64,000 nt of DNA from Sphagnum compactum (GCA_965153455.1 OZ234493.1:33036213-33100212), one strand, 5' to 3'; positions 5,560 through 59,400 are shown, counted from the stretch's first letter. Notes: generated by a model not told the origin, from the sequence alone. Program-made: numbers and translations.

Positions 5560-5950
5560 ACTGGATCCAATTTCACAAGCGAAACTATTAGGTGTGTGAA
5601 ACTACACAATATAATTCTACAAGTTTCACAAGTGAAACCACCATATTTGCAAAACTATTAGATCAAATTTCACTTGGGAAAGCATTATGGGATTCAGATT
5701 TGCAAGTAAAACATTAGGTCCCTAGAAGTTCCGGATCTAGTTTTGCAAGCAAAACATTAGGTTCATGAAACTTCTGGATTTGGTTTTGCAAGCAAAACAA
5801 TAGGTCTAGGGAACTTCCGGAGCTAGTTTCGCAAGCAAAACAATAGGTCCACATAATTTCCAAATCCAGTTTTGCAAGTAAAGCTATTAGCATGTCCATA
5901 GAACTTTCAAATCTAATGAAATTCATGAAACTAGTTTCGTTTGTGAAACC
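5560..5950. repeat. Degenerate ~41-bp tandem repeats (tttgcaagcaaaacattagg core)
   Basis: Recurrent gttttgcaagcaaaacat/aataggt and ggatcc/tagttt motifs at about 41-bp spacing. Confidence 0.7.
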
Positions 5951-7115: not shown

Positions 7116-8204
7116 CAATTTGGCCTTTTAGAGGCCTTGGCTTTAGGCTTTAGGCTTTGCCCTTTGCCCCCCTTATCCCCCAACCTACGTGCCTTAGGCC
7201 TTTCTTAAGATGGGTTTCAACTCATGACCTCTTTGGGGGGAAGAGGAAGCCACTTTATCACAAATGTAACAATAACATCCAGTTTGCTAACATTTTGGGA
7301 TCAATAGATTAAATATGGATGAATGTAGATGAATATAATGGATCATGAAAGATGAAATAATACTAAACCATGAGCCTATGTTTATTTCATGGCTCATGAC
7401 TTAGTTGCACTCGATTCCAAAAGTTCACAAAACTACAGTTTTGCTTACACTCAAGTTTCAACATTGAAGGAGAAGCAAACACTAGACCAGTACCAATACC
7501 AAGAGAACTTGTGGCAATGACAATTGGGAGTCTAATATTAGGGTCCTAGCAGAAACCCTAAAAATGAACATCAGACTGGTTTAGAGTCTGAACCTTGGTA
7601 GTTTTAGCTGCTGGGCTTCATTTTGTAAATTTTAGGGTTATTAAGGGGCAACTAGTTTTATAACTTTTTGACATTTAATGGTATTAATATATTCAGTGGT
7701 CAACTTAACTAGGTGCTATGAAGGTTCACAAATGTCCACTAGATGGAAGGAATTTAGTGAATGACATGAGCTTGTTTAACATTAGTGCATACTAGTTCTA
7801 AAACTGCAATCAAACCTAGTGTTAAGCTCCATACTATTTAGTAAGCTAACATTTAGATAATATTAGGTGAAAGAAGTATGACCTAAGGTTTGGTAATTTT
7901 GACTTAAAAACTAATCAACTTTTCTCTTATCTACAAACACCATGAAAAACCAATTTGTTTACCATTGACTTAAAACCCCATTATATCTTTCATATGAGAT
8001 GCTACTTAACATTGTGTTTTTATGTCAAGATATCTATTATTTTTGCAGATTTTACATTAAATTAACATCCATTTAATTTTGACTTAACAACTACTATAAC
8101 ATTAGATGTCACCATAGATTCCACGTAGGACTTGATGTTAATTATAACATTCTTGACCTGAATGCAACAAAATACGTGCCTTTTTCTAAATCACTTCACA
8201 TTAA

Positions 8205-28706: not shown

Positions 28707-29390
28707 ATGCAATTCTCATCAAAACAAACCCCCCCCCCCCCCCCTCCCACACACATAAGCTAATGATGTACAAAACAACAAGTTGTTTACAACAAGCACC
28801 TAAAAGTAACATGTTTGTCATATGTGGCTTGATGAAGTCATTGATGAGTTGCCATGTGTCATGTCATTTCAACAAAGTATTAATTAATGCTAGTTGACAT
28901 GGATTAATAGGTGTCTTGCATATTGTGATTAGATTGTTAGCAGTGCTTGTTCATGTGTGTGTCAAATGTCATGTATTTGTGGAGTTAAATGTGGGGTTGG
29001 ACAAGGCCTTCATCTGACCCCACATTTTGAAAATATGCCCCACCCATGGGCTTACCCACCACCATATAGCACAAGGCAAACTTTGTCATGAGGTTTTACA
29101 TACTTGGATCAAGATCTTTTGCATCATCCTACTTGGGAAGCAGATGGACCTTACACCTAGTATGAATAAGATCCTTCCTCCTTTCTAGGTGAGAATTTGG
29201 AATATTAATTTCCTCCAAATATATAGGAAAAAGATTTGGGTGTTTTCTTCAGAGTGTTAAGCTGGGTGTGTAATTTGATGTAATTAAACAATTACCTATG
29301 TAATTGTTTTAGTGGATAAGTTTGGTGATTTACTTGTTAATAGGATTTTATAATTTAATTTAGTCATGATGCATTGACTTTCACATATTA

Positions 29391-29869
29391 ATTTATATGA
29401 AACTCATGGGAAACCATGTGTTTAGTTTCTTTTTGAATATTTTATGTGAAATCGCATGAAGAACCATGTGTTTAGTTTCTTTTTGAATATTTTATGTGAA
29501 ATCGCATGAAGAACCATGTGTTTAGTTTCCTTTTGAATATTTTATGTGAAATCGCATGAAGAACCATGTGTTTAGTTTCCTTTTGAATATTTTATGTGAA
29601 ATCGCATGAAGAACCATGTGTTTAGTTTCCTTTTGAATATTTTATGTGAAATCGCATGAAGAACCATGTGTTTAGTTTCTTTTTGAATATTTTATGTGAA
29701 ATCGCATGAAGAACCATGTGTTTAGTTTCCTTTTGAATATTTTATGTGAAATCGCATGAAGAACCATGTGTTTAGTTTCCTTTTGAATATTTTATGTGAA
29801 ATCGCATGAAGAACCATGTGTTTAGTTTCCTTTTGAATATTTATGTGAAATCGCATGAAGAACCATGTG
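29391..29869. repeat. Minisatellite, 50-bp unit, about 9.5 copies, nearly identical
   Basis: Unit gaaccatgtgtttagtttcYttttgaatattttatgtgaaatcgcatgaa recurs at 29461, 29511 and so on to 29811, with no unique spacers. Confidence 0.95.
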
Positions 29870-31661
29870 ATGTATAAACTTTAGGTAATTTCTTAGTTAG
29901 TTTCATTTTGGATAATATATAAGTGGGTGTTGGTGACCTTGAAAAGGACCTTTGACTTGATGAAAAATTTGTTGTATGATTGTAAAGTTTGTTGGAGTAG
30001 AATTGTGAAAGGATTCGAGATTTTAATTTTGAAAGGTTTTGGTGTTGTTTATGTGTAATTGATAGTAGGAGAATGGTGTGGCATACTAGTTATGCATAGA
30101 CAATAGAAAGGTGAGGAAATATTTCTACAACCAAGAATATAGATTTCCATAGCTATGTAACAAACATACATAGTTTCGATCCTAAACCCATTTGTGATCT
30201 ACAGGTGCATCTAAGTGTTGGCTATTTCTTAGGTTCTAAAAGGAATTGTCAATTTCAATTCCTAAAATTTTCAAAGGTTTTGATTCTAATTCAATTTTGG
30301 TTCTTTTCGTTTAAGGAATTGGAATTCAGTTTTGGTTTAAATTCTGGTTTTTTTCTAAAGCGATTTCAATTCCAATTCTAAAAGCTAGTTTCAAATTGAA
30401 CCAATGTGAGTTACCAGTTCCATAACCTTCAATTCTAGTCCCAATATGCAAAACAACCCAAAACCTTAAAAAATTGGAATCTAATTTGAAATTGAACTAG
30501 TTTTGAGTCCTGATTACATAATTGGCAGTTATAGTTTCAATATGCAAAAGAGCCTAAAAACTTGAAAATACCCACTTTTCTATTTGATGAAAAAATAATT
30601 ACAAATGAGTGAACATGAACCTTAAAAAAACACTAACAAAAGGACCAATGTCAAAAATTACATTGAGAGCAACAAGGTCATAACCAAAATAAGAGGATGA
30701 ACAAACATGATAAGATATTTTATCCTTGTGATCTCACAAGTGGTTTTTTGACTCGTGTAAATGAAGATAAGAAATTATGTTTAACATTTGTGGACCCACA
30801 ACTTGTTTTTTTCAACACACATGGTGTAAAAAAAATGATTGCATAATTACGGGCCCACAAATGGTTTTTTTATTCACGTAGGTGAAGAAAATAATTTGAT
30901 ATTGCACACTTGATTTTTTTGACTCATGCAAGAAAAGAAAAAAAAATGTTGCAAACTTATGGGTTCACAAATAGTATTTCCCACCCGTGGGCTCACAAAT
31001 TTTTTTGTTAACTCACATAGGTGATGAAGCATAACAATATTTCACCCTTGTAGTCCCATAAGTGTTTTTTGAATCATATAGACGATCAAAGCAAAAGGAC
31101 AAACATCTTTAAAGAATGATGACCAAAGCAAGAGGAAACACACTTACCAATTAACCATTGCAATGACCATCACCACCATCGTAACACCTCAATTTACAAT
31201 CACCATTGTTGCCACCAAGAAAACAAACACCATGAAAACAACGCATAACCCCTAAATCAACTGTAAAATATAGTGTTGATAATCAAAGCAAGAGGACAAG
31301 TAATAACAACATCACAAAAGTCGATGAATAACTCACCGTAAGTAAAAAGGAAAAAGATTGGTTAAGGTAAGTTTTAGGTATCAAGATCCAAGGCCGCCAA
31401 TTCTTACCAACAATCTAAAAACCCAACCAACACTAGTGCATTACTATATTAAAGGGCTTAAGACTTGTGATACAACCCCTTATTTTGGAAATGTCACCCA
31501 CCAAGATGTGTTTGACCAAGAGTTCATCAAAGCATAAGTCAAGTCATAATGGACCTAAACATATATAAATCTTAGAACATGGGAAGGGAAGGGTGAACCT
31601 AAACATATATAAATCCTAGAACATGGGAGGGGTAAGGGTTGTTTTACAAACTCCTTAAGAA

Positions 31662-34600: not shown

Positions 34601-36219
34601 AAAAATTATTCTTTTACCTTTAATGTGGTCTCTCCAAGTTGAAAGCACAACTTGAGACTTCTCTACTCATTTTCAAAAGAGATAAAATGAGTCTTATTGC
34701 AAATATGTGTAAATGAAAACTTTCCCCCAAAATCCAACCTAGGATTGATTTTAATTAATATTCAAAAAATGTGAAAAAATTCGTAAATGTTTTATGTCTC
34801 TTTAACTTTAAATTTATCAAGCCTATTGCTTAATTAAATCAGATGTTTATTGCTTAATTAAAGAAAGTACATCTTGTGCATTAAATGGTCCAAAGTGGAG
34901 GTGAATTAGGTTTTAAATTGCCACCACAATATTTTCAATGATTATAATACCCACATTTGGGGCTAGTGGCTTATTGTCATCATGGGTTTCAATAGGATTA
35001 AAATAGATATTAGTGGGCTATTTGTAATACTTGCCTTTTACATTATAATTTCATCAATCAAAATTCAATCTTCAAGTGTATAGGCAAGTATGATGATGGG
35101 TGGGTAGGTAGGTTTTGCCAAAAGGTACAAGTTTAACTAAGAAGTAGAAAAGTATTGTTAAAAAGTAAAGTGGTATTGCCAAAAAAAATAAGTTTTGCCA
35201 AAAAAAATTAACCTAAAAAAAGTAGAGGTTTTCACATGAGGTAAGGTTTAACCATGATGAGATAAAGGTTTTGCTAAAAGGTAGCGATTTAGCCAAAAAA
35301 CATTTACCAAAACATAAAAGCTTTGCCATAAAGTATAGATATTTAGTCAAAAAGTATAAAGATTTTGTAGCCCACTAATAATAAGGTTTAACTAGGAAAT
35401 AGAAGTTTTATCAAGAGGTAAAGGTTTAGTTAAAAATCAAAGAGGTTTTGTTAAAAAATAGAGGTTTTAAAGTAAGGAAAAAATAAAAAATTTACCAAGA
35501 ATAGAAGCTTAACCAAAAACCAAAGATTTTTTATAAAAAGGTAAAAGTTTTGCTAAGAAAAAATAACAGTTTTGCCAAGAAATATTAAAATTTTGTCCAA
35601 AGGTAAAGGTTTTCAAGTAAAAAAAAAGGTTTTGCTAAAAAGTAGAAGTTCAACCAAAAAATAAAAGGTTTTGCTGAAAAACAAAAGTTTAACTAAGAAA
35701 AAATAAAGGTTTCGCCAAGTGGTAGAGGATTAACCAAGAAATTAAAAGACAAAGGTTTTGTAATTAGATAAAACCTTTATATATTCTTGGTTAAGGTTTA
35801 ACTAGGGAGTAAAATTGTTTTGCCAAATGATAGAGGTTTAACCATGAAAAAAAAGGTTTAACCAAGAAAATATAAAAGTTTTGTCAAGAAATAAAGATTT
35901 AGCCAAAAAGAGATAGAAGTTTTGCTAAGTGGTAGAGGTTTTGCTAATAAAGGATAAAAAGTAAGTAGATAGGTAAGGCCAAGATGTAGGTGAATAGGGT
36001 ATTTAGATTTGTAGGGTAGCTAAGTGCAAGGGTAGTATAGAGGTCGGGGTTGGGAAAAAAGGCCAAGAAAAATAAAATAAACCAAAAGTTAACAACCAAA
36101 AAACATTAATTATAGTATTATGTTGGTTAACAAAAGGTCAAGAATTCAATGAAAAAACCACCCCATATTAAAGATAAAATGGCCAACTAGTGTAGTCATA
36201 AGGTTGGTTCATTCTGGCC
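31662..36219. mobile_element. Putative large fold-back/TIR element with mirror-image degenerate subterminal arrays
   Basis: An aaacct-motif array (about 31930-32460) is mirrored by an aggttt array (about 35110-35950). Outer inverted match aacccaaccttcatgactacac / gtgtagtcataaggttggtt. No TSD or ORF recognised. Confidence 0.55.
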
Positions 36220-46830: not shown

Positions 46831-48561
46831 GATTTAGGGGAAAAAAAATACAGTATTCTTGCCATGGCAGCCGGTGGGTATCCTTAAACTGAAGAATCTT
46901 CTTCACAAAAAAGCATGTAAGAATGTTGAATCCAAAAAAGAGTGTTGCATATGTAGGTCAAAGAGCTCTGCTCAAGAATTTTGGAGAGCCCAGATCACTT
47001 CTTACTAAAACTGAACTAGAGGCAGTTGAATTCTGACCAAATCACAAAAGACTCAATTCAAGGGTATACAGGTCTGCTTTTGATAACCTACTTGTTTGCT
47101 GGGTCTCAAACTTTCTGAAAAACCAATTAGAGAGAACCTACCCACCTGGTAAGTATCATAGAGAGAACCTGAAAGACATTGATATTTTCAGAATTCTTTA
47201 AAAGAAGCTTGAAAACTCGCAAATTTGGCACTTGTTTCCACATATAACAGGTCAATTGATCAGTTGAGAATACTCCAGGTGCTCAAAAGACTGGTTTAGG
47301 GTTTAGGGTTTATGCTCCATGGTCTATTTACGTCCACCGTTGCCGTTTATGAGAATTCTTTCACATGCATTAAATATGTCAAGATTCATGATTGCTCAAG
47401 TTTTTTATTGCACTCCATTTTGCTTTGATTTTGAGTCATTTTCATGATAGAAATGTCATCTAGAGCTTTTTTTTTTGGTAACACCAAAGGGTTTGGTGCA
47501 TCAACTTTAAAACATTTTTTCCAGCTTTCAAAATCATATTACTTCTAATTATGTCCATAAACGCAGTTTCTACAATAATGGATGTTTTAAATCATGAAGT
47601 TTCGAATGAAATTTCAAATGGAAGCTGAAATGATCAATAGTTTATAACCTATAAATTTATGAATTCCATGGTGAACAAAATGATAATATGTGATTTTTAA
47701 AATGAGTCTAGAGCAAGAAATAATGCCACTCACTAAGGTAGAATTACCTTATCGTCAAGATCTTCCTTTTCCTTTCTTTCCAGCCTCAAGTTCATCTTCC
47801 TTCTATGCCTACTCATCTAAATGTCCGTGCACAATATCAATGTATTCTTTTGTGAAGGTCATAATCTTTTCTTCGTCTTAAATGTTGAATATTTGGTTGT
47901 GAACTAGCGTGACTCTAACTTCTACCAACACAACAAGCTTGATAATTTGATTGACAAACCCATAAAACCCAACCCTAGAAATGTGCAGCACTAGGTTCGG
48001 GCATTTTGCTATAGCCCTACAAGAAATGCTTCATCATTTATATATATGCATGCTTGATTTGCATATATGAAGACATTGGAGTTGGATACATGTATTCTTG
48101 GCTTGTTGCTCGTAATTTCAAACACATATGCATGTAGCTTGTTCTACATTGCATGCATGTAAAGATGATCTTACATTTTAAACATCACATTTAGATTTGA
48201 AAGATTGATTTCATCTCCTTTGATTTTGCCACTTTTTTAATACCTTCAACTTCATAGGCATTTTGTTGGGCAAGGGTGAAAGCACACTAAGGATGAATCA
48301 TTTTTCATCAAAAAAGGTTATACTATGTATAACAAATATTATAATACACAATAAGCTAAAGTTTTGATGGCATCCTTTGACTATCCTAAACATAAGCCAA
48401 AAAAATTTTAATTTTAAAAACATCATTTTGGAACTCGAAATTCATTTTGAGTCAAAATTAATCTTGATCCAATGGTTAGAAGAAGAGGATTAAATAAAAT
48501 TAATGTATATAGAATATATAACTTATAATTTTTTTATGACAATAAGGCCTCATGTTTGTGG

Positions 48562-49412
48562 TGTAACCCTAAATTAGGTTACATATACTTCTGGGTGTCA
48601 CCGATCAGGGAAGTGGGCTGTTGGTCAGTTGAGCCGTTTGTTTCCATGACGGCTGCTTTTACTTTACTTCCGCATGGGAGGTTTTGTTGATTTGGGAACG
48701 GGGTAATGCACTGAGATATTTGCATGGCGGCTGCACTGAATGAGTATGGAGCCTGTGTGGCGGCTCCGAATTATGACTAAGGTCAGCGATGCAATTATGG
48801 AGAGTGGCGGTTTGGCACGGGAGAAGGGCTGAAGCTTCTGGACGAAGCTAACGATGGGGATGAGAAGGATAGGAAGGACGGGTTTTTTTTTGGGGGAGAA
48901 AAGGAAGAACGGACAAGGAGAGGGAACCAAGAGAGTATTGAGGAGAGAGGTAGGAGTTGGATAGGACAGAGCTTAGCTGTGCTGAGAAATTTTTCCGTTG
49001 CGTCTGAGGTAGAGTTGAGCTCTTGTTGCCGAAATAGAGGAGAGGAATTAGGGAATGAGGAGGATAGTGCATTGGGGAACGATAGAACCCTCTGCTTTCT
49101 CTGTGTGAACTGCTGATGGCAAGAATTGCTTGAGCTGTCGAGGATGTATATATTCTGTGAATGAGAATGAAGAATTTCTTTTTGAATTCGCATCAGTGTG
49201 GATGTGCATGTTAAAAAGTGTGAGACGTTGAATTGCTGTGTCGATTGTCTCTCAGTCTGTGAATCATAGAGAGATCAGGGAAAGCAGGAAGCAGCTTGAG
49301 TCCTGGAAATGGAAAGCTGTCAGTGGGCGTGAGACTGATTCGTAGAACATAGACGCCAGGGTCCGCATCATATGGTGTATGTGTCGTCTATTTCCACAGG
49401 ACCCCTTCCTTT
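48562..49412 (+). repeat. 5' LTR
   Basis: tgtaaccctaaattaggttaca...ggaccccttccttt, a direct repeat of 55584-56405. It carries about 30 bp extra near 48865-48897 and lacks the terminal ggctaca. Confidence 0.95.
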
Positions 49413-49424
49413 TGGTATCAGAGC
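49413..49424 (+). promoter_or_regulatory. Primer binding site complementary to the initiator tRNA-Met 3' end
   Basis: tggtatcagagc immediately after the 5' LTR. Confidence 0.92.
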
Positions 49425-49488
49425 GGGTTGCGTATGTGAGTCTCGATAGGACCTGAGAATGTGTAAATGCAATGACAGTTGAGTCATC

Positions 49489-49818
49489 ATGTCGTCGTCT
49501 AGCACAGATGAGATTCCGACAGAAGGACTAACTCAGGACATGCGGGAGCAACGGATCATCATTGCCTTCGATTTTTTCACTAATTCGGGTGGACCACCGA
49601 GAGGGTCTGTTGTCCTGCGTTTTTTTGGTTTCGGCCTCATCACCATTGTAGGAATAGAACCTGAAGAGGCTCGCGTAAGAGATATAGCAGTAGAGATCGC
49701 TCACAGTGGATTCTACACTCGCGCCGAGGTTTGGGTGAAGGTGAGTAATGGATCAGGGGGCTGGGTCTCAACCTCCCAGTTGCAGACACAGTTCTACTTC
49801 ACGACGTACCTTGCGTAG
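49489..49818 (+). CDS. Putative extra ORF 1 (109 aa) in the retrotransposon leader
   Basis: ATG-initiated open frame between the PBS and gag. No recognised domain. Confidence 0.35.
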   Translation: MSSSSTDEIPTEGLTQDMREQRIIIAFDFFTNSGGPPRGSVVLRFFGFGLITIVGIEPEEARVRDIAVEIAHSGFYTRAEVWVKVSNGSGGWVSTSQLQTQFYFTTYLA

Positions 49819-49852
49819 AGTGACACCCTCGTCTGCTGAGCGACAGCGTAGT

Positions 49853-50152
49853 ATGCCAAGATTGGGGGACATTTGGGTTCCCAAATCGACTCCTTCAGCA
49901 AATCATTTTCCCAGGCTTTACATCCCTAGAGTGGAGGACTTGTTCCAGACTGGAGATCGCATTATCCGAGTGGAGCATGGTGGGTCGAGGTCGCGTCTGA
50001 TCAGTTGGAGGATCTGGCGCGATGCAGGAGAAAGCTGGCAATTCCAGCAGGAGTCCTCAGATGAGCAGATCTTTTCTCTTATTTCGTCTGACTTCTCGCC
50101 TTTACCTTTGAGACCTGTCGCTGAAGGTGAGCAGTCTACGTTCTTTGGTTGA
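49853..50152 (+). CDS. Putative extra ORF 2 (99 aa from ATG 49853; frame open from 49748) in the retrotransposon leader
   Basis: MPRLGDIWVPK...SWRIWRDAGESWQFQ...STFFG*. No recognised domain. Confidence 0.35.
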   Translation: MPRLGDIWVPKSTPSANHFPRLYIPRVEDLFQTGDRIIRVEHGGSRSRLISWRIWRDAGESWQFQQESSDEQIFSLISSDFSPLPLRPVAEGEQSTFFG

Positions 50153-50207
50153 ATCGCAACTAACTCTGTCTTGAAGGTTGTGGGTTAGTGTTGCACCTCC
50201 ATTCAGG

Positions 50208-53200
50208 ATGACAAGTCCACAAGGTATGGACGAATTGTTCTGGGGGCGCGAGCATGAAGACGTCAGTGATTGGGCTGAAAGGCTCACCATGGCTGCTGAG
50301 GTGCGAGACCTCAATGCGGACAAGCTTTTTAAGATTGCTAAGCTCAACTTGAGAGGACAGGCCCGTGAATGGTTCAGGAAGCTGCAGCCGGCGCCGGCCG
50401 ACTGGCTTGAGCTGAGAGCACAGATTTTGCAGAAGTATGGCAATGTGGACTATGATGACATTCGAATGAAGCTCGATGTCATCAAGCAGGAGCCCAAGGA
50501 ACGGGTGCAGAAATATTTTGAGCGATTGGATAAATTGTTTCAGCGGGGGAAAATCCCCGATGCTGAACAGAGGAGGCGATTTCTGGGTAAGTTGAGACCA
50601 GAAATTAGGAAAATATGTGTTGTTAGGACCTACGCTGACATAGAAGAAATGGTGGGTGCTGCCACAGAACTCGAAAGGGTGCTAGGTGAGCTTGGCGAAA
50701 CTCCATTCGAACCTCTTAAGGAAGAGCGGGAGGAAGGAGTTGCAGAGACAATGATGGAGAAGCAAGTGAATGCTTTCAATGATACGCTTGTCAATTTTAT
50801 GAAGGGGAATGTGTCTAAACCTGTCACATCGTCCTCTTCCAGTATGTCTACAATGTGCCAAATTTGTAGAGGAGGAGACCACACTGCCTTAGCATGTCCG
50901 AGGCTCAATGAACCCCGGCCCAAATGTGCCAAATGTGGGATGCCGCATAGGACAGAGAATTGTGGTGTGAAGTGTTCCTTCTGTGCAGGATTAGGGCATT
51001 CGGAGGACAGATGCTGGAAGAAACCAAGGGATGGGAAGATGCACCCCGGATCAGCTAACTTCCTGGAAGTGATGCTGGATGATGAGGAAGCGACTCTTCA
51101 CCAGCTTAACGAGCTGTGTGGGCGTAAGAACTTGTTCTCCTATACTCGGGTACCAAGAAGAAGAAATCCTGTGGAGGTTACGCCAGCAGCGTCTGGACTG
51201 ACAGCTGACGATACAATTGTGGGAGCAGAAGGCAATCGGGAGGGGTCTGTCAAGTCTAAGATTCTCTCCCACTTTATCAAAGGAAAGGTATCACTGACGC
51301 CGATGGAGACAGTGATGATGATACCGGGAGAACTGGAGCACCTTGAGAATCTTGTGAAGGTAGCTCGAAGAAAGAAAGACACGGAGGCGGCAAACACTCA
51401 AGTGACGATGGTTTCAGCCATCCCAGCACTCAGGCGCCTGTGCATTAGCAAGACGCACAGGAGCAAAACACTCCACCTGTCGGTGGAAGTGAATCAATGT
51501 TTGATTGAGGGACTGGTAGACACTGGAGCATCCATGTCAATCATGGCAGCTGCAGTGGTTCGAGAGCTGGGTCTAATGCATTTAGTAACTGGATCGGAAG
51601 CATACAAGACGGCCTCAGGTGCCATTACACAGGCACTCGGCCGAATTGAGGAGGTGCCGATAAAAGTTGGAGGGGTACAATGTAGGATGACATTCATGGT
51701 TGTGGATACTGATAGCTATGATGTTTTGCTCGGGCTTGATCTGCTGATCAAGATTGGTGCGATTGTGGATGTAGAGCAGGGGCTGATCCAAATCAAGCGA
51801 GGTCCTGGTGCTGATGTGGAAGTGCTGCCACTCACTGTGGTAAATCTGTTGCAGAGGTCGGGGTCAGCCACTGGTGACCACCATAACGATTATGTTCAGA
51901 GACAAACACCTGGAATTACGGAAGTAAGGAGGGGAGCGTCCTATTTGTCTCGGCAGGATACGGATGAACAGTTAGCTGAGCTGGAGTCCGAGTCGGATCC
52001 TGGCTCAAGCGAAGAATCTGATGAAGAGAATCAATCGAGGGGTACAGTTGAAGGTGGATCTGAGTTCGGGAACACCGAGCTTGAAGATTTAGTGTCAAAA
52101 GAGGGGCCACAACAAATTCTGCAGCTGATGCTGCGAGACAAAACAGACGATTTGCTGAAGGAGGAAATTACTGATGATGAGGACTATGCCGACTGGATCC
52201 AATGGGCTGCAGAAGAGGAGCAACGTATGCAGAGCCTCTCGGAAGCAGCAATTGCAGCCGAAGAATCCGTGCTGCTGCAGCTTCAGCAGATGGAGGTCGC
52301 TGATTCGAGTGGCTGTGTGGAGGAGCGCATCATGAAGAACCCCAAGGAGGAGACACGATGGGGCGAAATTTGTCAGAAGATCAGAATTGATCAGCACTTG
52401 GACAAAGGGATGGAGCGACAGTTATGGTGCGTTCTGGAACAATATCAAGATGTATTCGCCTGGAACAAAGGGGAGCTTGGATGTTGCAACGTTGGAGAGC
52501 ATCAAATCGACACACAAGGGTTCCCCCCTTGTAAGGTAGCCCCTGGTCGATTGTCGTATTGGGAAGAGGTAGAGGTAAACAGGCAGATTAATGTGTTGGT
52601 CGAGTTGGGAAAAATGCGGCCAAGCAACTCAGCCTACGCCTGCCGTGTGACTCTGCCTGTCAAGAAAGATGGAAGTAGACGATTCTGTGGGGATTACAGA
52701 CCCCTCAATTTGCAAACTCGGAGGGATTCATTCCCCATGCCTCTTGTGGAGGATATCATCTCTCAATTGGGCAAGTCAGCGTGGTTCACTGCACTGGATC
52801 TACAGTCGGGATTCTGGCAGATCAAGATGGCTCCAGAGGACATGGGAAAGACAGCACTGGTTACTAAAAATGGGTTGTTCGAATGGACTGTCATGCCATT
52901 CGGACTCAAGAATGCCACAAGTACCTTTACGCGGACTATGACCGAAGTCTTCAAAGGTTTGGGGGACTCATTCCTGAAGACCTTCGTTGATGACCTCAAT
53001 GTCCACAGTGAGGAATGGCAAGATCATCTTCAGCACCTGGGAGCTGTACTCTCCAGACTAAGGGAAGTAAACCTGAAGCTGAACCCGAGCAAGTGTTGTT
53101 TTGCTGCAGGTAGTGTAGTCTTCCTAGGACATGTAGTCAGCAAAGAAGGGACTAGACCTGATCCCAGTAAGGTCGATGCAGTGCGGGGATTCCCGGCGCC

Positions 53201-55538
53201 TACAACAGTTACCAATGTCAAATCCTTCTTGGGACTGACAGGATACTACCGCAAATATATTAAGGGATATTCTAAGTTGGCAGGTCCTTTGTTTGAGCTC
53301 ACTAAGAAAGATGTGGACTTTGTCTGGAATCCGGATTGCCAGAGGGCGTTTGCCGATTTGAAGAAGGCTCTGATGGGAGCCCCAATTCTGGTGAGGCCGA
53401 ATTTCAAGGAGCCATTTTGTCTCGATGTAGACTGGTCGACCAAGGGGGTTGGTGCGATCCTGTCACAGAGAGAAGGTGGATTTGAAAGGGTTATAGCTTA
53501 CGCCAACAAGGCATTGGCGTTGGCACAAAGGAAGTTTCACCCCATGGAAGGGGAATGCTATGCTTTGATATGGGGAATCTTGCATTTCAGGCAATACTTG
53601 CATAGAACCCACTTCACGTTGAGGACGGACCATAAGCCGCTCGAGTGGCTAGCGACTGTGTCTGATGCGCATGGAAGGAGAGGCAGATGGATTGACCTGC
53701 TATAGGACTATAGCTTTAAGATAGTCCACAGACCGGGCATGAGACATGCGAATGCTGATGCTCTTAGTCGGAATCCGGTGGGGAAGGCTGTGGACGATGA
53801 GGACTTCCAACAGGAGATTCAGGATGATCCACATACACAACCCGAAGTGGCCGAGACGATTGAGAAGGTATTAGCTGTTCGGCATGGCCAGCATATGGAG
53901 TGGCTTGGAAATAGGAAGCAGTTATGGGGCCATACTGAGCGCCAAGGGCATAGTCACGGGATCAAACATTGGCATGACTCAGATCCTCACCACCTGTTCA
54001 TGATTGACTTGGTGACAGCAACGGATACTGAGGAAGAGGCGACTCCAAGTGCAGAGCAGATGGAGGTAACTGAGCATGAAAACTTGGAAGTCAACCATGG
54101 TGAGTTGAGGCGTTGGAAGGACTAGACAAAGTATTATGACAGAAGGCAACAGCTGGAGCTGGTTCTTGCTGCTCAAGGATTGTCTGAAATTGAAGGCCGC
54201 GAGATCAACCCAACCACTGCGGGTGGAGAAGCTAAGTATGGGGTTGAAGTGAAGGAGCCCGACATATGGAAGGATGCGATCTGTCTGGCATTCCTGAAAG
54301 AGGGAGTGCTACCCGATATGGTTGAGCATGAGGAGGGCAAGAGGGCTAGAAAGCGAGCAGAACACTACTGTTGGAAGGAGCAGAGGCTTTTCTTCAAAGA
54401 CTTGTATGTGCCCAGGCCTGAAGAAAGAAGGTCACTAGTGATTCAGATGCATGAGGATCTGGGACATTCGGGCGAACAGAGGCTCTTGACCGAGATTTGT
54501 CGAAGGTATTTCTGGCACTGCCGAACTGAGGACGTCAAGTCGGAAGTTGTCAGAAGTTGCCAGCAATGTCAGCTGGTCAAGAGTGAAGGAAGCGTCCGAT
54601 CTGGGGATGAGAGACTCAAAAGCATCCCAGTCTGTGATTTGTTTTACAGAGTGGCGATGGACACTGCTGGACCACTGCCTGAGACCAAGGCAGGAAACAA
54701 GTACATATTTGTAGCCATCGACCATTACTCCAAATGGTGTGAAGCCAAGGCCGTGGCTGATCATGGTGCAAAGACGGCAGCCAGGTTCCTGGAGGACGAT
54801 TTGATTTGTAGGTATGGAGTACCTGGTTTCATACTAACTGACAACGGAGGGGAGTGGGGTGCAGAGTTTGAAGTCATGTGCAAGGACTATGCTATACAGC
54901 ATCAGCGCACGGCACCTCAATGGCCCCAGTGCAACGGGATGGCAGAACGCATGATCAAAACCATCAAGCATGGTATCATGGTTCTGGCCACGAATCCTGC
55001 AAATGTTGACTGCTGGGATGAACACCTGGCGAAAGTTTTGTTTGGGTACAGGTGTGGGGTCCAGGCGAACACCAAGTTCTCGCCATTCATGGTCCTAACC
55101 GGTCGATCACCAAGACTCCGAGCTGACAACTATCTGAGTGCATTAACTGGAGTTGTGGATGATGGAGTTGATGTTGAGCAGATTGCAGCACAGTTTCTGG
55201 AGAAGGTGAAGCTCATAGCAAGCATACATGAGAACGTCTTGCTCAACGTAGAACAGGCACAGAAGAAGCAACGAAGCACGTATGCAAGTAGGAAAGGCAA
55301 GCACCTGTTTGAAAGTCTCACTGCTGGAGAAACCATGGTCAAAATGAAGAAGCCCGGCAAGAAGCGCGCGTTGACCACGAGCTGGGAAGGCCCGTACCGA
55401 TTTGTCGGACATGTGGATGGGAAGGGCGACTATGACTTTGAAGAAGGCTGTCGTCTATGTGTTGTCCAGGATGCTGATGGGCGTCAATGGGAGAGATCTA
55501 GGAGGGACCTACAGATATTCCACATGCAACCAGATTGA
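50208..55538 (+). pseudogene. gag-pol: Single-frame gag-pol polyprotein interrupted by two TAG stops (53703-53705, 54123-54125)
   Basis: Gag with three CCHC knuckles; protease LVDTGAS; RT motifs FCGDYRPLN, LDLQSGFWQ, MPFGLKNA, FVDD; RNase H LDVDWS, RTDHKPL, ANADALSR; integrase HEDLGH..CQQC, MDTAGP, TDNG, GMAER; C-terminal WEGPY. The ORFs at 50178, 53739 and 54180 share one frame. Confidence 0.95.
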
Positions 55539-55563
55539 ACAGAGCTGAGGGACTCAGCTTTTT

Positions 55564-55576
55564 AAGAAGGGAGGGG
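55564..55576 (+). promoter_or_regulatory. Polypurine tract
   Basis: aagaagggagggg, preceded by the hairpin agctgag-gga-ctcagct and a T run, 7 nt before the 3' LTR. Confidence 0.85.
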
Positions 55577-55583
55577 CTACATA

Positions 55584-56413
55584 TGTAACCCTAAATTAGG
55601 TTACATATACTTCTGGGTGTCACCGATCAGGGAAGTGGGCTGTTGGTCAGTTGAGCCGTTTGTTTCCATGACGGCTGCTTTTACTTTACTTCCGCATGGG
55701 AGGTTTTGTTGATTTGGGAGCGGGGTAATGCACTGAGATATTTGCATGGCGGCTGCACTGAATGAGTATGGAGCCTGTGTGGCGGCTCCAAATTATGACT
55801 AAGGTCGGCGATGCAATTATGGAGAGTGGCGGTTTGGCACGGGAGAAGGGCTGAAGCTTCTGGACGAAGCTAACGATGGGGATGAGGAGAAAAGGAAGAA
55901 CGGACAAGGGGAGGGAAAAGAGAGAGTATTGAGGAGAGAGGTAGGAGTTGGATAGGACAGAGCTTAGCTGTGCTGAGAAATTTTTTCCGCTGCGTCTGAG
56001 GTAGAGTTGAGCTCCTGTTGCCGAAATAGAGGAGAGGAATTAGGGAATGAGGAGGATAGTGCATTGGGGAACGATAGAACCCTCTGCTTTCTCTGTGTGA
56101 ACTGTTGATGGCAAGAATTGCTTGAGCTGTCGAGGATGTATATATTCTGTGAATGAGAATGAAGAATTTCTTTTTGAATTCGCATCAGTGTGGATGTGCA
56201 TGTTAGAAAGTGTGAGACGTTGAATTGCTGTGTCGATTGTCTCTTAGTCTGTGAATCATAGAGAGATCAGGGAAAGCAGGAAGCAGCTTGAGTCCTGGAA
56301 ATGGAAAGCTGTTAGTGGGCGTGAGACTAATTCGTAGAACATAGACGCCAGGGTCCGCATCATATGGTGTATGTGTCGTTTGTTTCCACAGGACCCCTTC
56401 CTTTTTGGCTACA
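55584..56413 (+). repeat. 3' LTR
   Basis: tgtaaccctaaattagg...ggaccccttcctttttggctaca, followed by the TSD gtgg. Confidence 0.95.
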
Positions 56414-59400
56414 GTGGTTTATGAAACATTACCAAACAAAAGAAAATTGAAAAAATAATGCAATGCCCATCCATAAAATCTCCTTCTCTCTAATATAATA
56501 ATGGTTTTTTCTTTAAAAAAAGATATTGTTATGTATTTATTGTTGAACAAATGGGAAAAAACAATTTTTAATGAAAATTTTAAATTTCTAAATTGACTTC
56601 GGTAAAAACACGTAACTAAAAGCCAAAAAAGGCGTCGACTGTTAGACATAATCAATCAATATCAAACTTCTTTTTTTAATAACCATTTAAAACCATAGTA
56701 ATCATGGCAAGTTAGTTTTTTTACCATATGAATGTCAAGGAACTCAGAGTAAAAATTCATTCGATCCAATTTTAAGTTTTAGTTTTAATTTAAGATGTTT
56801 GAAATGTACACCTACTGTGTCAGATGAAGTCAATTTTGCCAAGGACTATCAAAAGGACTCATATAATAAAATAATTTTCATTGAAAAAAATATAAATGAT
56901 AAGCACATATTAACCACATTCAAAAAACATTCACTTTTGAAAATGTGGAATTCTAAAACTTTGAAAATTCAAAGACTGTTTCAAAATTGCTTCAAAATTT
57001 CAAAGCTTCAAGAGTCTTTTACCACATATAAATGGGCTATAATGTACATGATGTATGAAGAAAAGTTATAACGTAAAGAATGATAAAACTAAAGAATGTG
57101 AAATTTTAATTTTTGGTGATGACTTAAAATTTTGATCATTTTTCAAGATGAAACATTGAATCTATAAGGAATCTTCACACTTTTAAAAATTCATATTTAT
57201 TCAATAATGACTAACAAAAGAATGTGATGCATTAGGGAACATTTAAATTTTTTTTTTTTAAAGTTATAAAAAAACTCATTCAAAAATTCATTTGCATGTA
57301 AAAGTTTATTTTGGGAAAGAAGACATGTAGTCCTTTCCCAAAGTAATCCCTTTGGTTCCTACTTACAGGTTTTGACCCACCTCCTAGATTTAATTGATGC
57401 ATATCAATATCATACAGTGCCATAAAAAAAATCACCCAAAAATTCCACCCACAACCTTAGTTTTGAAGTATATGTGCAATTTTTCAAACTTTGTGACAAG
57501 TATTATTTTATCACAAATATATTCCATACATTCAAATTCTTCAATGTTAATTATATTTTTTCAAATAATTTAGTAAATTAAGTCTAAAACTAATCAAATA
57601 TACTTGAAAAACCAAAAATAATCTAAAATGTGATGTCCATACATTGCCAAAAAAATTATACTTGTGATTACAAGTTTTGGGGGGTTTAATGTGCTTTCAC
57701 CTATTTCAGCATGCCACTTCCTTTTTATGTTTTCCAACGTGTGATTTGAAAAATCATAGTATCTTTCTCCTATAACAATAGGATTTTTTTCACATGAAAC
57801 CTCATATTATGTTATGAATTTGCATATGCAACTTGGACCCACTCGTTGCAATCAACAACATTGTTAATTTTGAAACCTTGTTTGAACTTAATCCTTTTTT
57901 TTCCCTTTCATGATGTTGTTTCTAGAGTGGTTAGGCATCCAAAAAGGATTGACTAATGAACATATTTCTTTTTATGGTTACAAGGGTATGTGGGCCAAGA
58001 AATCAAGACTACCACCAACTAGTTGTCTTTGTCTGACAATGTTGTTTCCTTTAGTGGAGGAAAAACTCATTACATCACCATTTGCAAATTAAGCCCTAAC
58101 TATTGCAATTCTAATCCTATAGAAAAGAAAACACATTATTTGCATCTTAATTTTGAGAAACAAGGTGTACCACATCCTCCCTTCCCCAGTTGAAGATAAT
58201 TACAAATTTAAAAGCATAACTAATTAATATAACTTAAAGAAGGAAATGTTGTCCATTAACATCCATGAACAATCCAAAATTTTGAAATTTATTGCAAAGT
58301 ATTGGGTAGGACTTAAATCTTATGTTTGAAATGGTTTTGGTGGTAAAATAATATTATATACTTATAAACCCATACACCACCTTTCAACACAAATGACAAA
58401 ACCTTTATAATTGAAAGGCCACACAAACAAACAAGAATTGTTCCTAAAATGTTTATGACATGTTCCTAAATGTGTTCATGAAATTCCTAGCCCCTCATTA
58501 TTAAGTGCCAAGTTGCACCATGTAAAAACAAAAATTGGTTTATCAATTGTAATCATTTGGATATGGTTCTAATTATTGATAAAAACCAAAACATGGGAAG
58601 TATTACAAATTTCTAAACATGAATGCAATGGCCCTTAAAGACCCCCTAATCTTGACCTTTAAAAATTGGTCAAAATTTTATGATTACTTTAATCCATTAT
58701 CTATTAATCAAATATAAAAAAGATCGTCTTAAGACCTCCTATAAATTAAAAGATTAAAAAAATGAAAAAACACATTTTTTTTGTGTTCTTAAACAAAGGA
58801 ATATGAAGTCTTATTTTCTTTAAAAATATGTCCTTGACCACTCATTTGGAATATTAAAACTCAATTTTTTGTTAATCCAATTAGAATTTCAAATTTTACA
58901 CAACTTGGGTAATCTTTAATATAAAATTTGAAGTGAAAAGTCTTTTTTTAATTAATCCTATTTTTTCTAAAATTGAATGGTTATAAGAAATTTGAGCTAT
59001 GATGTTCCTAATGGTACCACCCAAGGATGGCTTTGCCTTTTGACTAATTTTTATTAACCAAAATTGAAATTAATGATTTTAATTGGCCAAACCAAGTAAT
59101 TGCCAAACACTAGTTCATATTATAATCTACCATTATGTTGAAAAATTGGTGTAAATAAGAATAATGCAATAGTCCTTTGAGGTACATTTGTAACATGCAC
59201 TCTTGGAACACATAATAATTGTTTTAACAAAAAGACTAAAAAATATTTTTCTCATCAAAAAAAAATTTAATCAATGATTGGATCTGTGATTCATTTGTAA
59301 TTGTAATTGACATTTACAATTAGAAATATCCCTAGTCACCTTGGACAAGTGGCATAAAGTGCAACTAAAAACATGACATAACCATCAAGTTGAAAGTGTA

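Follow-up and report, generated by a model that had tools for sequence, protein, structure and literature searches.

A degenerate Ty3/gypsy copy without CA at its 5' LTR end and a candidate LTR-LTR junction route of integration in its clade

In the textbook view, retroviruses and LTR retrotransposons integrate from linear cDNA, both att ends of which have been written by reverse transcription. Elements of the DIRS1 type lack terminal nucleotides at an end and keep them as an internal complementary region, and the joined or circular cDNA regenerates the ends. An HIV-1 analogue of the cleavage of the 2-LTR junction of prototype foamy virus (PFV) is said to have been described by Delelis et al. 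in 2007. For PFV itself, the report of Delelis et al. (2005) (PMC1180852) states that integrase cuts the palindromic sequence of the LTR-LTR junction, with just two nucleotides lost between junction and provirus. As recounted in PMC11054761, an internal att site at the LTR-LTR junction was proposed as the integration site of spleen necrosis virus (Panganiban and Temin, 1984), and the retroviral circle model was dropped after the precursor had turned out to be linear DNA. Among plant Ty3/gypsy elements, Phygy is described as a moss lineage of non-chromovirus gypsy in the REXdb classification (PMC6317226; PMC6911290), and 4-bp target-site duplications are given as typical of some lineages including Phygy (PMC6911290).

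We analyzed a 64-kb stretch of Sphagnum compactum DNA (64,000 nucleotides; the window), which harbors a degenerate copy of a Ty3/gypsy retrotransposon at 48562-56413. The element has the following features.

48558..48561, plus strand: target-site duplication, left copy GTGG (4 bp), from the sequence and the empty-site joint
48562..~49412, plus strand: 5' LTR, starting TGTAACC and ending in the polypyrimidine ...GACCCCTTCCTTT without a terminal CA, from the LTR alignment
49413..49424, plus strand: PBS TGGTATCAGAGC, adjoining the U5 polypyrimidine end, a single match
49489..55538, plus strand: gag-pol region (gag, protease, RT, RNase H, integrase), from Pfam
55564..55576, plus strand: polypurine tract (PPT) AAGAAGGGAGGGG, from the sequence and a conserved block in the family alignment
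55575..55590, no strand: near-palindrome GGCTACA-TA-TGTAACC (GGCTACATATGTAACC), with the form of an LTR-LTR junction and 2 nt between CA and TG
55577..55583, plus strand: 7-nt spacer CTACATA between PPT and 3' LTR, from the sequence and the family alignment
55584..56408, plus strand: core of the 3' LTR, with homology to the 5' LTR and ending ...CCCCTTCCTTTTTGG, from the LTR alignment
56409..56413, plus strand: terminal pentamer CTACA of the integrated element, from the sequence, the LTR alignment and the empty-site joint
56414..56417, plus strand: target-site duplication, right copy GTGG (4 bp), from the sequence and the empty-site joint

Pfam matches give the pol order of aspartyl proteases, RVT_1, and RT_RNaseH with RT_RNaseH_2, and the in-frame segment that follows RNase H holds Integrase_H2C2 and rve; a Retrotrans_gag match lies upstream of the pol domains. 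This order with the upstream gag, together with direct LTRs inside a short target-site duplication, is that of Ty3/gypsy elements, whereas the ends depart from them, as the 5' LTR lacks a CA end in front of the PBS and the PPT and TG stand 7 nt apart. The coding region is degenerate: two stops interrupt its frame (53703-53705 and 54123-54125), and the N-terminal part of gag carries frame changes. As in Phygy, the element is short, there is no chromodomain match, the region 49489-55538 fills the internal part 49413-55583, and the duplication is 4 bp long, but its sequence GTGG does not follow the NCGN target preference of that lineage. In the relatives, where the target comparison covers the left flank copies only, the four bases left of nine LTR starts are ATGG, GAAC, ACAG, TCAC, GTAG, CTTG, TGTC, TTGT, and GTTC, with NCGN in 0/9.

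Both borders are fixed independently by reads and contigs from paralogous empty sites, i.e., empty forms of the flanking repeat. Aligned to the window, these share a joint from 48557 to 56414 that skips 7856 bases and is found in five raw reads (X21), one contig (X1), and two contigs (X8). The loose-end consensus ...GGCCTCATGTTT passes straight into 56414. A 5-base overlap at the joint would also be compatible with a duplication of 5 bp, GTGGT. Nine non-redundant relatives with unrelated left flanks, however, keep the T of TGT at their LTR starts, which makes a 4-bp duplication with TG...CA ends the right reading. The alignment of reads to the window also indicated a low copy number. The best-supported variants, indels, joints, and loose ends listed from it include none at the 5' junction (49413) or at 56409-56413.

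The two LTRs, 852 and 830 bp long, are 98% identical (16 substitutions over 821 aligned sites, 1.95% divergence) and differ by one 31-bp and one 1-bp indel; their start and end motifs each match twice in the window. The 5' LTR end ...CCTTTTGG passes directly into the PBS, which we take to be that of the initiator methionine tRNA and which has one match in the window at up to one mismatch (0.22 expected). No tRNA genes were found in the 64-kb window. The 3' LTR (55584-56413) ends ...CCTTTTTGGCTACA (...CCTTTTTGG-CTACA). Homology between the LTRs extends through TTTT(T)GG, with a T run four bases long in the 5' LTR and five in the 3' LTR, to position 49415 and thus into the first three PBS bases, leaving only 5 unmatched nucleotides at the 3' end, CTACA (56409-56413) against TATCA of the PBS. 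The terminal CTACA is missing from the 5' LTR and from every related 5' LTR/PBS junction. After ...TTTTTGG at the right end of the element it is identical to the first five bases of the spacer, and the 3' LTR end and the spacer together rebuild ...TTTTTGG-CTACA-TA-TGTAACC, the same 16-mer as at 55575-55590. The core of this near-palindrome, ACANATGTRACC, occurs once in 64 kb (0.16 expected; at least one match in 13 of 100 shuffles). The LTRs, PBS, GGCTACA, GTGG, and near-palindrome named in the original prediction for 48558..56417 were all recovered in place.

The original prediction had also described a 5' LTR that runs into the PBS without CA, which we confirmed in the window and in all related copies: the U5 polypyrimidine directly adjoins the PBS in 24/24 copies, and a CA end before the PBS occurs in 0/24. 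Twenty-three of them come from metagenome contigs, collapse to 14 non-redundant insertions in five LTR families, and share 72-86% identity with the window in the gag region; the remaining one, L029, is a contig of the viral collection. Because the junction pattern left room for 0-30 nt separating the PBS from the U5 motif, it would also have picked up canonical copies. In 23 of the 28 matches U5 adjoins the PBS across a one-base gap (T), and the other five are unrelated elements with the canonical CA, 0-4 nt, and PBS. As the U5 motif belonged to the search pattern for 23 of the 24 copies, its conservation is partly by construction; L029, which was recovered by integrase similarity rather than by the motif, reads ...CCACTTTCTTT/TGGTATCAGAGC. 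The 5'-junction pattern had no match in the viral contig collection, in which integrase searches with a single sequence and with an alignment matched L029 and L030 alone. In L029 the LTRs are collapsed, the ends of the contig overlapping by 98 nt, and the 3' terminus is not displayed; L030 ends 728 nt into its own 3' LTR, short of the terminus. A second U5 motif was found in none of the 14 non-redundant loci, and searches of the relatives' loci and the window for extra U5 motifs, TTTGGNNACA ends, and further clade members returned only reverse LTR starts and chance matches.

These junctions bear on the simple alternative of a deletion private to this copy, according to which about 10 bp (GGCTACA and 2-3 nt) were lost from the 5' LTR end after insertion through TTGG microhomology, the family being canonical, i.e., ...TTTTTGGCTACA-NN-TGGTATCAGAGC. 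The copy is indeed old and damaged (a 31-bp indel between its LTRs, two stops in frame, and frame changes in gag), and TTGG microhomology is present at the site. Nevertheless, the canonical junction was found in 0/24 relatives from six other LTR families even though the pattern allowed it, and a loss in the U5 of a master copy would leave all its progeny without a right end in either LTR. The CA-free junction in 24/24 relatives thus refutes the private deletion, to which we give almost no credence. The pattern set in advance as speaking against the original interpretation, ...TTTTGGCTACA followed by 1-3 nt and the PBS, was likewise seen in 0/24 relatives, and the interpretation survived. The permuted architecture is a property of the clade.

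On the PPT side, the GGCTACA whose conservation had been proposed as a check proved to be kept as GGNNACA-NA-TGTRACC in 3/3 families. The spacers are CTACATA, TTACAGA, and TGACATA (form NNACANA), each followed by TGTRACC. Every GGNNACA agrees at 6/7 positions with the inverted start of its own LTR, compared with 5/7 for the PBS-derived GGTATCA. If right ends are fixed as GGNNACA, the identity of spacer and terminus amounts to two free bases, a chance of 1 in 16. The LTR start TGTRACC is kept in nine non-redundant loci with unrelated left flanks, and integrase should accordingly depend on a right end ...ACA to match, an end not encoded on the PBS side. Over 17 further positions, the left end agrees with the inverted U5 end at 11-13 in 3/7 families, and the extended terminal inverted repeat is weak (7-9/17) in 4/7 families including that of the window; the extended repeat may lend weak support to the junction reading. 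The PPT pattern matched six loci in the viral contigs, namely L029, L030, and four unrelated ones. In the genome contigs, the PPT-junction pattern had no match, and the 3'-end pattern had 74 matches, about the chance number by estimate, none of them clade-like at E <= 1e-5.

In every relative, the U5 end ...CCCTTCCTTTT stands directly against a tRNA-type PBS. With no CA before the PBS, there is no way for ordinary reverse transcription to generate the CTACA of the right end from that side, and the sole templated copy of CTACA is the U3-side end of the cDNA. On balance, we lean towards the reading that in this clade a circular permutation of 5-7 nt separates the integrated ends from those expected of reverse transcription, and that the LTR-LTR junction was what integrated. 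Plus-strand DNA would start directly after the G-run of the PPT and give the left cDNA end (GG)CTACATA-TGTAACC..., and minus-strand DNA would start at the PBS and give the right cDNA end ...CCTTTTT(GG), whose last 1-3 nt may be a retained remnant of the tRNA 3' end. The two ends would then be joined, either by ligation into a 2-LTR circle or by a switch of the plus strand from the minus-strand 5' end to the spacer, into the junction ...CCTTTTTGG-CTACA-TA-TGTAACC.... Nicking of both strands by integrase after CA, at the CA/TA/TG palindrome, would leave a pair of recessed CA-3'OH ends, each with a 5' overhang of 2 nt, and their concerted insertion would create the 4-bp duplication, with the central TA being lost. 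These steps would yield the observed order TGTAACC...TTTT-PBS...PPT-CTACATA-TGTAACC...TTTTTGG-CTACA exactly, and the U5 end and U3 start of the window element do form a palindromic CA-NN-TG junction. A closed circle and a junction made by template switching of reverse transcriptase would both fit and would be indistinguishable. Neither a circle junction nor a tandem LTR or any further by-product turned up in the relatives' loci or among the joints listed. The original prediction of a circular intermediate is partly supported: the permuted architecture is clade-wide, while the mechanism is what we infer with the single 3' LTR terminus inspected, that of the window copy (n = 1). More tentatively, and with less than even confidence, we suggest that the clade may have split its right integrase site between the U5 end, which would hold the inner part, and the stretch after the PPT, which would hold the outer 5 nt. 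Linear cDNA would then be integration-incompetent, and a closed LTR-LTR junction, either the 2-LTR circle or its counterpart made by reverse transcriptase, would be the obligatory substrate opened at CA/TA/TG.

A different account would let the LTR overlap the PBS. Here the first 8 PBS bases, TGGTATCA, would be the usual right end of the clade. Some 10 nt of the tRNA primer would stay on the minus strand after RNase H action and be copied into the plus strand, with integrase cutting behind the CA of TATCA, and the spacer after the PPT would be a mere signal for RNase H or plus-strand priming. HIV-1 keeps one tRNA nucleotide at its U5-side end, and the CA that closes ...TTTTTGGTATCA in 24/24 related 5' junctions shares the register of the one closing ...TTTTTGGCTACA; the inverse of GGTATCA also fits the LTR start at the 5/7 positions given above. 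Yet the sole 3' end seen is CTACA and not TATCA, a change that would take three substitutions within 5 bases (about 1e-6, an estimate from 16 differences over 821 LTR sites), and the overlap offers no reason for a spacer that is an inverted copy of the LTR start in 3/3 families. We therefore consider it unlikely. Improbable, in our judgment, is a one-off aberrant 3' end in a clade that otherwise integrates differently, with CTACA as filler from a 5' flap of the left end or as the product of a rare circle-derived integration. With one 3' end available (n = 1), a 5-nt filler matching the nearby spacer could conceivably come from a flap in the same complex, but the clean 4-bp duplication and the exact TG...CA ends point to concerted integrase action and not to repair joining, and such an event would leave the CA end of all other copies unaccounted for.

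If the junction reading is true, the clade would be unable to make a CA right end on its linear cDNA, and the long-contested role of the LTR-LTR junction would become directly testable in a tractable plant group, this bryophyte-type gypsy clade being a natural instance of the circle-junction route rejected for retroviruses. The predicted integrase substrate would be ...CCTTTTTGGCTACATATGTAACC..., to be compared with blunt ...CCTTTTT(GG) and ...TGGTATCAGA ends. A spacer-derived terminus would likewise predict 3' ends reading ...TTTTGGTTACA in elements of the L029 type and ...TTTTTGGTGACA in those of the L030/L012 type. Annotation programs that assume TG...CA ends and adjacency to PBS and PPT would misplace the borders of such elements and would probably take the PBS's own CA for the 5' LTR end. 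No prior description of this architecture was found in full-text searches covering the main text of articles.

With the canonical plant Ty3/gypsy elements that use a methionine-tRNA PBS, as described by Neumann et al. (2019) (PMC6317226), the window element shares the domain order, LTRs, PBS 12-mer, PPT, and 4-bp duplication. Canonical elements, however, have CA, 0-4 nt, and then the PBS, and a PPT beside TG, whereas the clade of the window element has no CA and a 7-nt spacer after the PPT that resembles a right end. The absence of terminal nucleotides at one end and their presence as an internal copy recall DIRS1, but in DIRS elements the recombinase is of the tyrosine type and no target duplication arises; the DDE integrase (rve, Integrase_H2C2) and the 4-bp duplication set the window element apart from them. 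Compared with the spleen necrosis virus model, which relied on an engineered construct, the window presents the natural architecture of a plant retrotransposon. The likeness to PFV, as reported in PMC1180852, lies in a palindromic LTR-LTR junction, a DDE integrase, and the processing of both ends at once, which we infer here from sequence, as well as in the two nucleotides between the CA and TG steps, corresponding to CA-TA-TG in the window element. The linear ends of PFV, however, already bear att sequences, and its circle route is optional and disputed, whereas the right att half of the window clade is not encoded on the U5/PBS side, so that here the junction would be obligatory.

The region holds one LTR retrotransposon, at 48562-56413, with LTRs of 852 and 830 bp that differ over 821 aligned sites by 16 substitutions (14 transitions), one 31-bp indel and one 1-bp indel. 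Its features on the forward strand are listed below.

48562: start of the 5' LTR, TGTAACC; the sequence then continues to …GACCCCTTCCTTTT-GGTATCAGAGC
49413-49424: primer-binding site (PBS), 12-mer TGGTATCAGAGC, the sole match within the window
Between the LTRs: gag-pol, with the Pfam domains Retrotrans_gag, aspartyl protease, RVT_1, RT_RNaseH and RT_RNaseH_2, then Integrase_H2C2 and rve
55564-55576: polypurine tract (PPT), AAGAAGGGAGGGG, upstream of the 3' LTR
55577-55583: spacer CTACATA, between the PPT and TGTAACC of the 3' LTR
55584-56413: 3' LTR, terminal sequence …GACCCCTTCCTTTTTGGCTACA, with GTGG on both sides of the element

The domain succession of gag-pol corresponds to the Ty3/gypsy order, and a Pfam domain search of the gag-pol region found no chromodomain. 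The copy is degenerate: the N-terminal part of gag shifts frame, and two in-frame stops cut pol into 50175-53705, 53706-54125 and 54126-55538. Streptophyta is the commonest phylum among the labelled members for the RT/RNase H part in the protein atlas. The copy number of the family in the sequenced host is low, with a read depth of ~3 over single-copy parts and ~10 over the summed LTR ends. The gag-proximal stretch 50044-51139 shows a raw-read depth ~10-20x that found elsewhere between the LTRs and contains a sharp loose-end boundary at 50204 (36 reads of the raw-read set X21); it appears to be shared with a related family of higher abundance or with a chimeric segment. Tandem arrays with periods of 50 bp and 43 bp, together with a looser ~41 bp repeat, lie in other parts of the window (29300-29900; 5690-5904; 35216-35951).

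The PBS TGGTATCAGAGC, which we take to be that of initiator methionine tRNA, is of the usual plant type. Parts of PMC6317226 give methionine-tRNA as the commonest plant PBS type. The homology between the two LTRs extends through TTTT(T)GG and then splits into TATCAGAGC (PBS) on one side and CTACA|GTGG on the other. The terminal arrangement described in the original prediction, namely a 5' LTR running into the PBS, a GGCTACA end and a GTGG duplication, was confirmed on sequence check, and GGCTACA-TA-TGTAACC lies at 55575-55590, as had been noted. The window contains a single match to its core, ACANATGTRACC, against 0.16 expected.

The flanks of the element are a multi-copy repeat, other copies of which show the uninterrupted target in raw reads and contigs. 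The joint 48557->56414, skipping 7856 bases, was found in five X21 reads and in one and two contigs of the sets X1 and X8, respectively, and loose ends at 56414 with the consensus …GGCCTCATGTTT in 33 X21 reads, 13 X1 records and 16 X8 records. Together, these empty-site joints and loose ends indicate that CTACA is part of the inserted DNA. The 5-base ambiguity of the joint would also allow a 5-bp duplication, GTGGT, which we rejected because TGT is kept at the LTR starts of relatives; its conservation in nine non-redundant relatives with unrelated left flanks indicates a TG…CA element with a 4-bp duplication. The target repeat (48400-48561 and 56414-56600) has a read depth ~9x the single-copy level, and the runs of three organisms contain numerous paralogous "empty" forms whose joints differ slightly. 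Parts of PMC6911290 and PMC6317226 describe a 4-bp duplication as typical of a few plant lineages, the moss lineage Phygy among them. The element agrees with Phygy on three traits but does not fit its reported NCGN target preference, so that, judged on such traits, we do not file it there.

We scanned metagenome contigs with the pattern CCCTTCCTTT-N{0,30}-TGGTATCAGAGC, which would detect the junction type of the window copy as well as a canonical type with GGCTACA and 2-3 nt. Among 28 loci, 23 read …CCCTTCCTTTT|TGGTATCAGAGC, with a one-T gap and without a CA end. The other five (L007, L009, L011, L022, L024) are unrelated elements, all with the canonical CA, 0-4 nt and PBS, and provide a useful internal control. 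The 23 copies represent 14 non-redundant insertions in five LTR families; no LTR similarity to the window was detectable in any of these five, and in the gag region they share 72-86% identity with it. A viral-collection contig, L029, found by integrase similarity (72%) and not by motif, reads …CCACTTTCTTT|TGGTATCAGAGC. A CA end before the PBS is thus absent from 24/24 related junctions in six families besides the window's, where the U5 motif of 23 copies was built into the search pattern, so that the free observations are limited to how long the gap is, the lack of the heptamer, and L029.

L029 carries an identical 98 nt at 1-98 and 7723-7820, inside the LTR, which marks it as an LTR-collapsed retrotransposon assembly filed as a viral genome and not as circle evidence. 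In the largest related LTR family (L001, L004, L013, L020, L028), some copies have a ~165-200 bp deletion, and the L001/L014 copy has a ~1 kb insertion within the LTR relative to other members. The LTR start of the window element is followed 8 nt downstream by an inverted copy, TGTAACC-N8-GGTTACA, then TATAC (48562-48583, 55584-55605), and the LTR starts of L003, L006, L012, L017 and L029 read TGTRACC-N8-GGTNACC; the inverted copy may form a hairpin or serve as a further site of integrase binding. The U5 polypyrimidine end CCCCTTCCTTTTT (49400-49412 / 56392-56406) matches the reverse complement of the PPT AAGAAGGGAGGGG (55564-55576) at 11/13 positions, and the two could pair in genomic RNA, which would place the PBS region near the PPT and the spacer.

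On the PPT side, L029 reads PPT-TTACAGA-TGTGACC and a second viral-collection contig likewise retrieved by its integrase, L030, PPT-TGACATA-TGTAACC, compared with PPT-CTACATA-TGTAACC in the window. The spacer has the form NNACANA in all three. Joined to the two final G of the PPT, it gives GGNNACA, the form in which GGCTACA, whose conservation the original prediction had put forward for checking, is kept in these three elements. GGNNACA agrees with the inverse of the LTR start of the same element at 6/7 positions, and the PBS-derived GGTATCA at 5/7. At further positions, agreement between the LTR start and the inverted U5 end reaches 11-13/17 in three of seven families and only 7-9/17 in the other four, the window's included. 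The start of the L030 LTR matches those of the 5' LTRs in L012, L017 and L019 at 78-83%, which connects a 3' side carrying the spacer with a family whose 5' junction is of the abutting type. From the junctions and spacers compared, a right end that is permuted and split is conserved across the clade.

The simpler rival in the original prediction, a private deletion at the 5' LTR end of the window copy, is contradicted by the 24 related junctions, and by their comparison this trivial explanation is excluded. A right end that overlaps the PBS, TGGTATCA, templated by a remnant of the tRNA, lies in the same register and may hold for other families; the window copy ends in CTACA instead of TATCA, and by our estimate an LTR divergence of 1.95% makes three substitutions within five bases very unlikely. 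The inverted-repeat-like spacer would also be left without explanation. One-off filler at the window insertion agrees poorly with its exact TG…CA termini and its clean duplication of 4 bp. The 3' terminus is known from the window copy only, and should integrase accept right ends of the form GGNNACA only, the identity of spacer and terminus amounts to just two free bases.

In the standard scheme, the first base copied beside the tRNA primer fixes the right cDNA end, the plus-strand primer cut at the PPT fixes the left one, and the parental 5' LTR supplies U5 of both new LTRs. Reverse transcription of the clade architecture would yield LTRs of the form (GG)CTACATA-TGTAACC……CCTTTTT(GG), in which the right end of the cDNA would lack CA and the left end would carry the right-end pentamer. 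The integrated copy equals this expected cDNA circularly permuted, with the central TA lost: TGTAACC…TTTT-PBS…PPT-CTACATA-TGTAACC…TTTTTGG-CTACA. In the simplest route, the U5 end would be joined to the U3-side end and integrase would nick after both CAs (CA|TA|TG); because just 2 nt lie between them, ordinary processed ends with 2-nt 5' overhangs would result. The junction might be a ligated 2-LTR circle or arise by a plus-strand template switch via GG microhomology, which sequence cannot separate. The fifth T, or TGG, probably derives from a retained tRNA 3' remnant, for which HIV-1 offers a single-nucleotide precedent. No junction molecule was seen, nor, in the 14 non-redundant loci, any by-product such as a tandem LTR. 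We infer that integration from an LTR-LTR junction, with the ends joined in any form, is the best-supported mechanism and slightly favor it overall, while a closed circle as the obligatory substrate seems rather doubtful.

DIRS-type elements keep their missing terminal bases as an internal copy, as the window element does; unlike it, they use a tyrosine recombinase and produce no duplication. An HIV-1 counterpart of the LTR-LTR junction cleavage of foamy virus has reportedly been described (PMC1905944). We found no description of this kind of terminal architecture in retrotransposons in the full-text literature that we searched, any border or PBS data in the supplements of PMC6317226 aside. 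According to a part of PMC11054761, the circle-junction model of 1984 was given up for retroviruses. The nearest described process is that of foamy-virus integrase, which, in a passage of PMC1180852, cuts a palindromic LTR-LTR junction, and there, as proposed here, just two nucleotides disappear on the way from junction to provirus.
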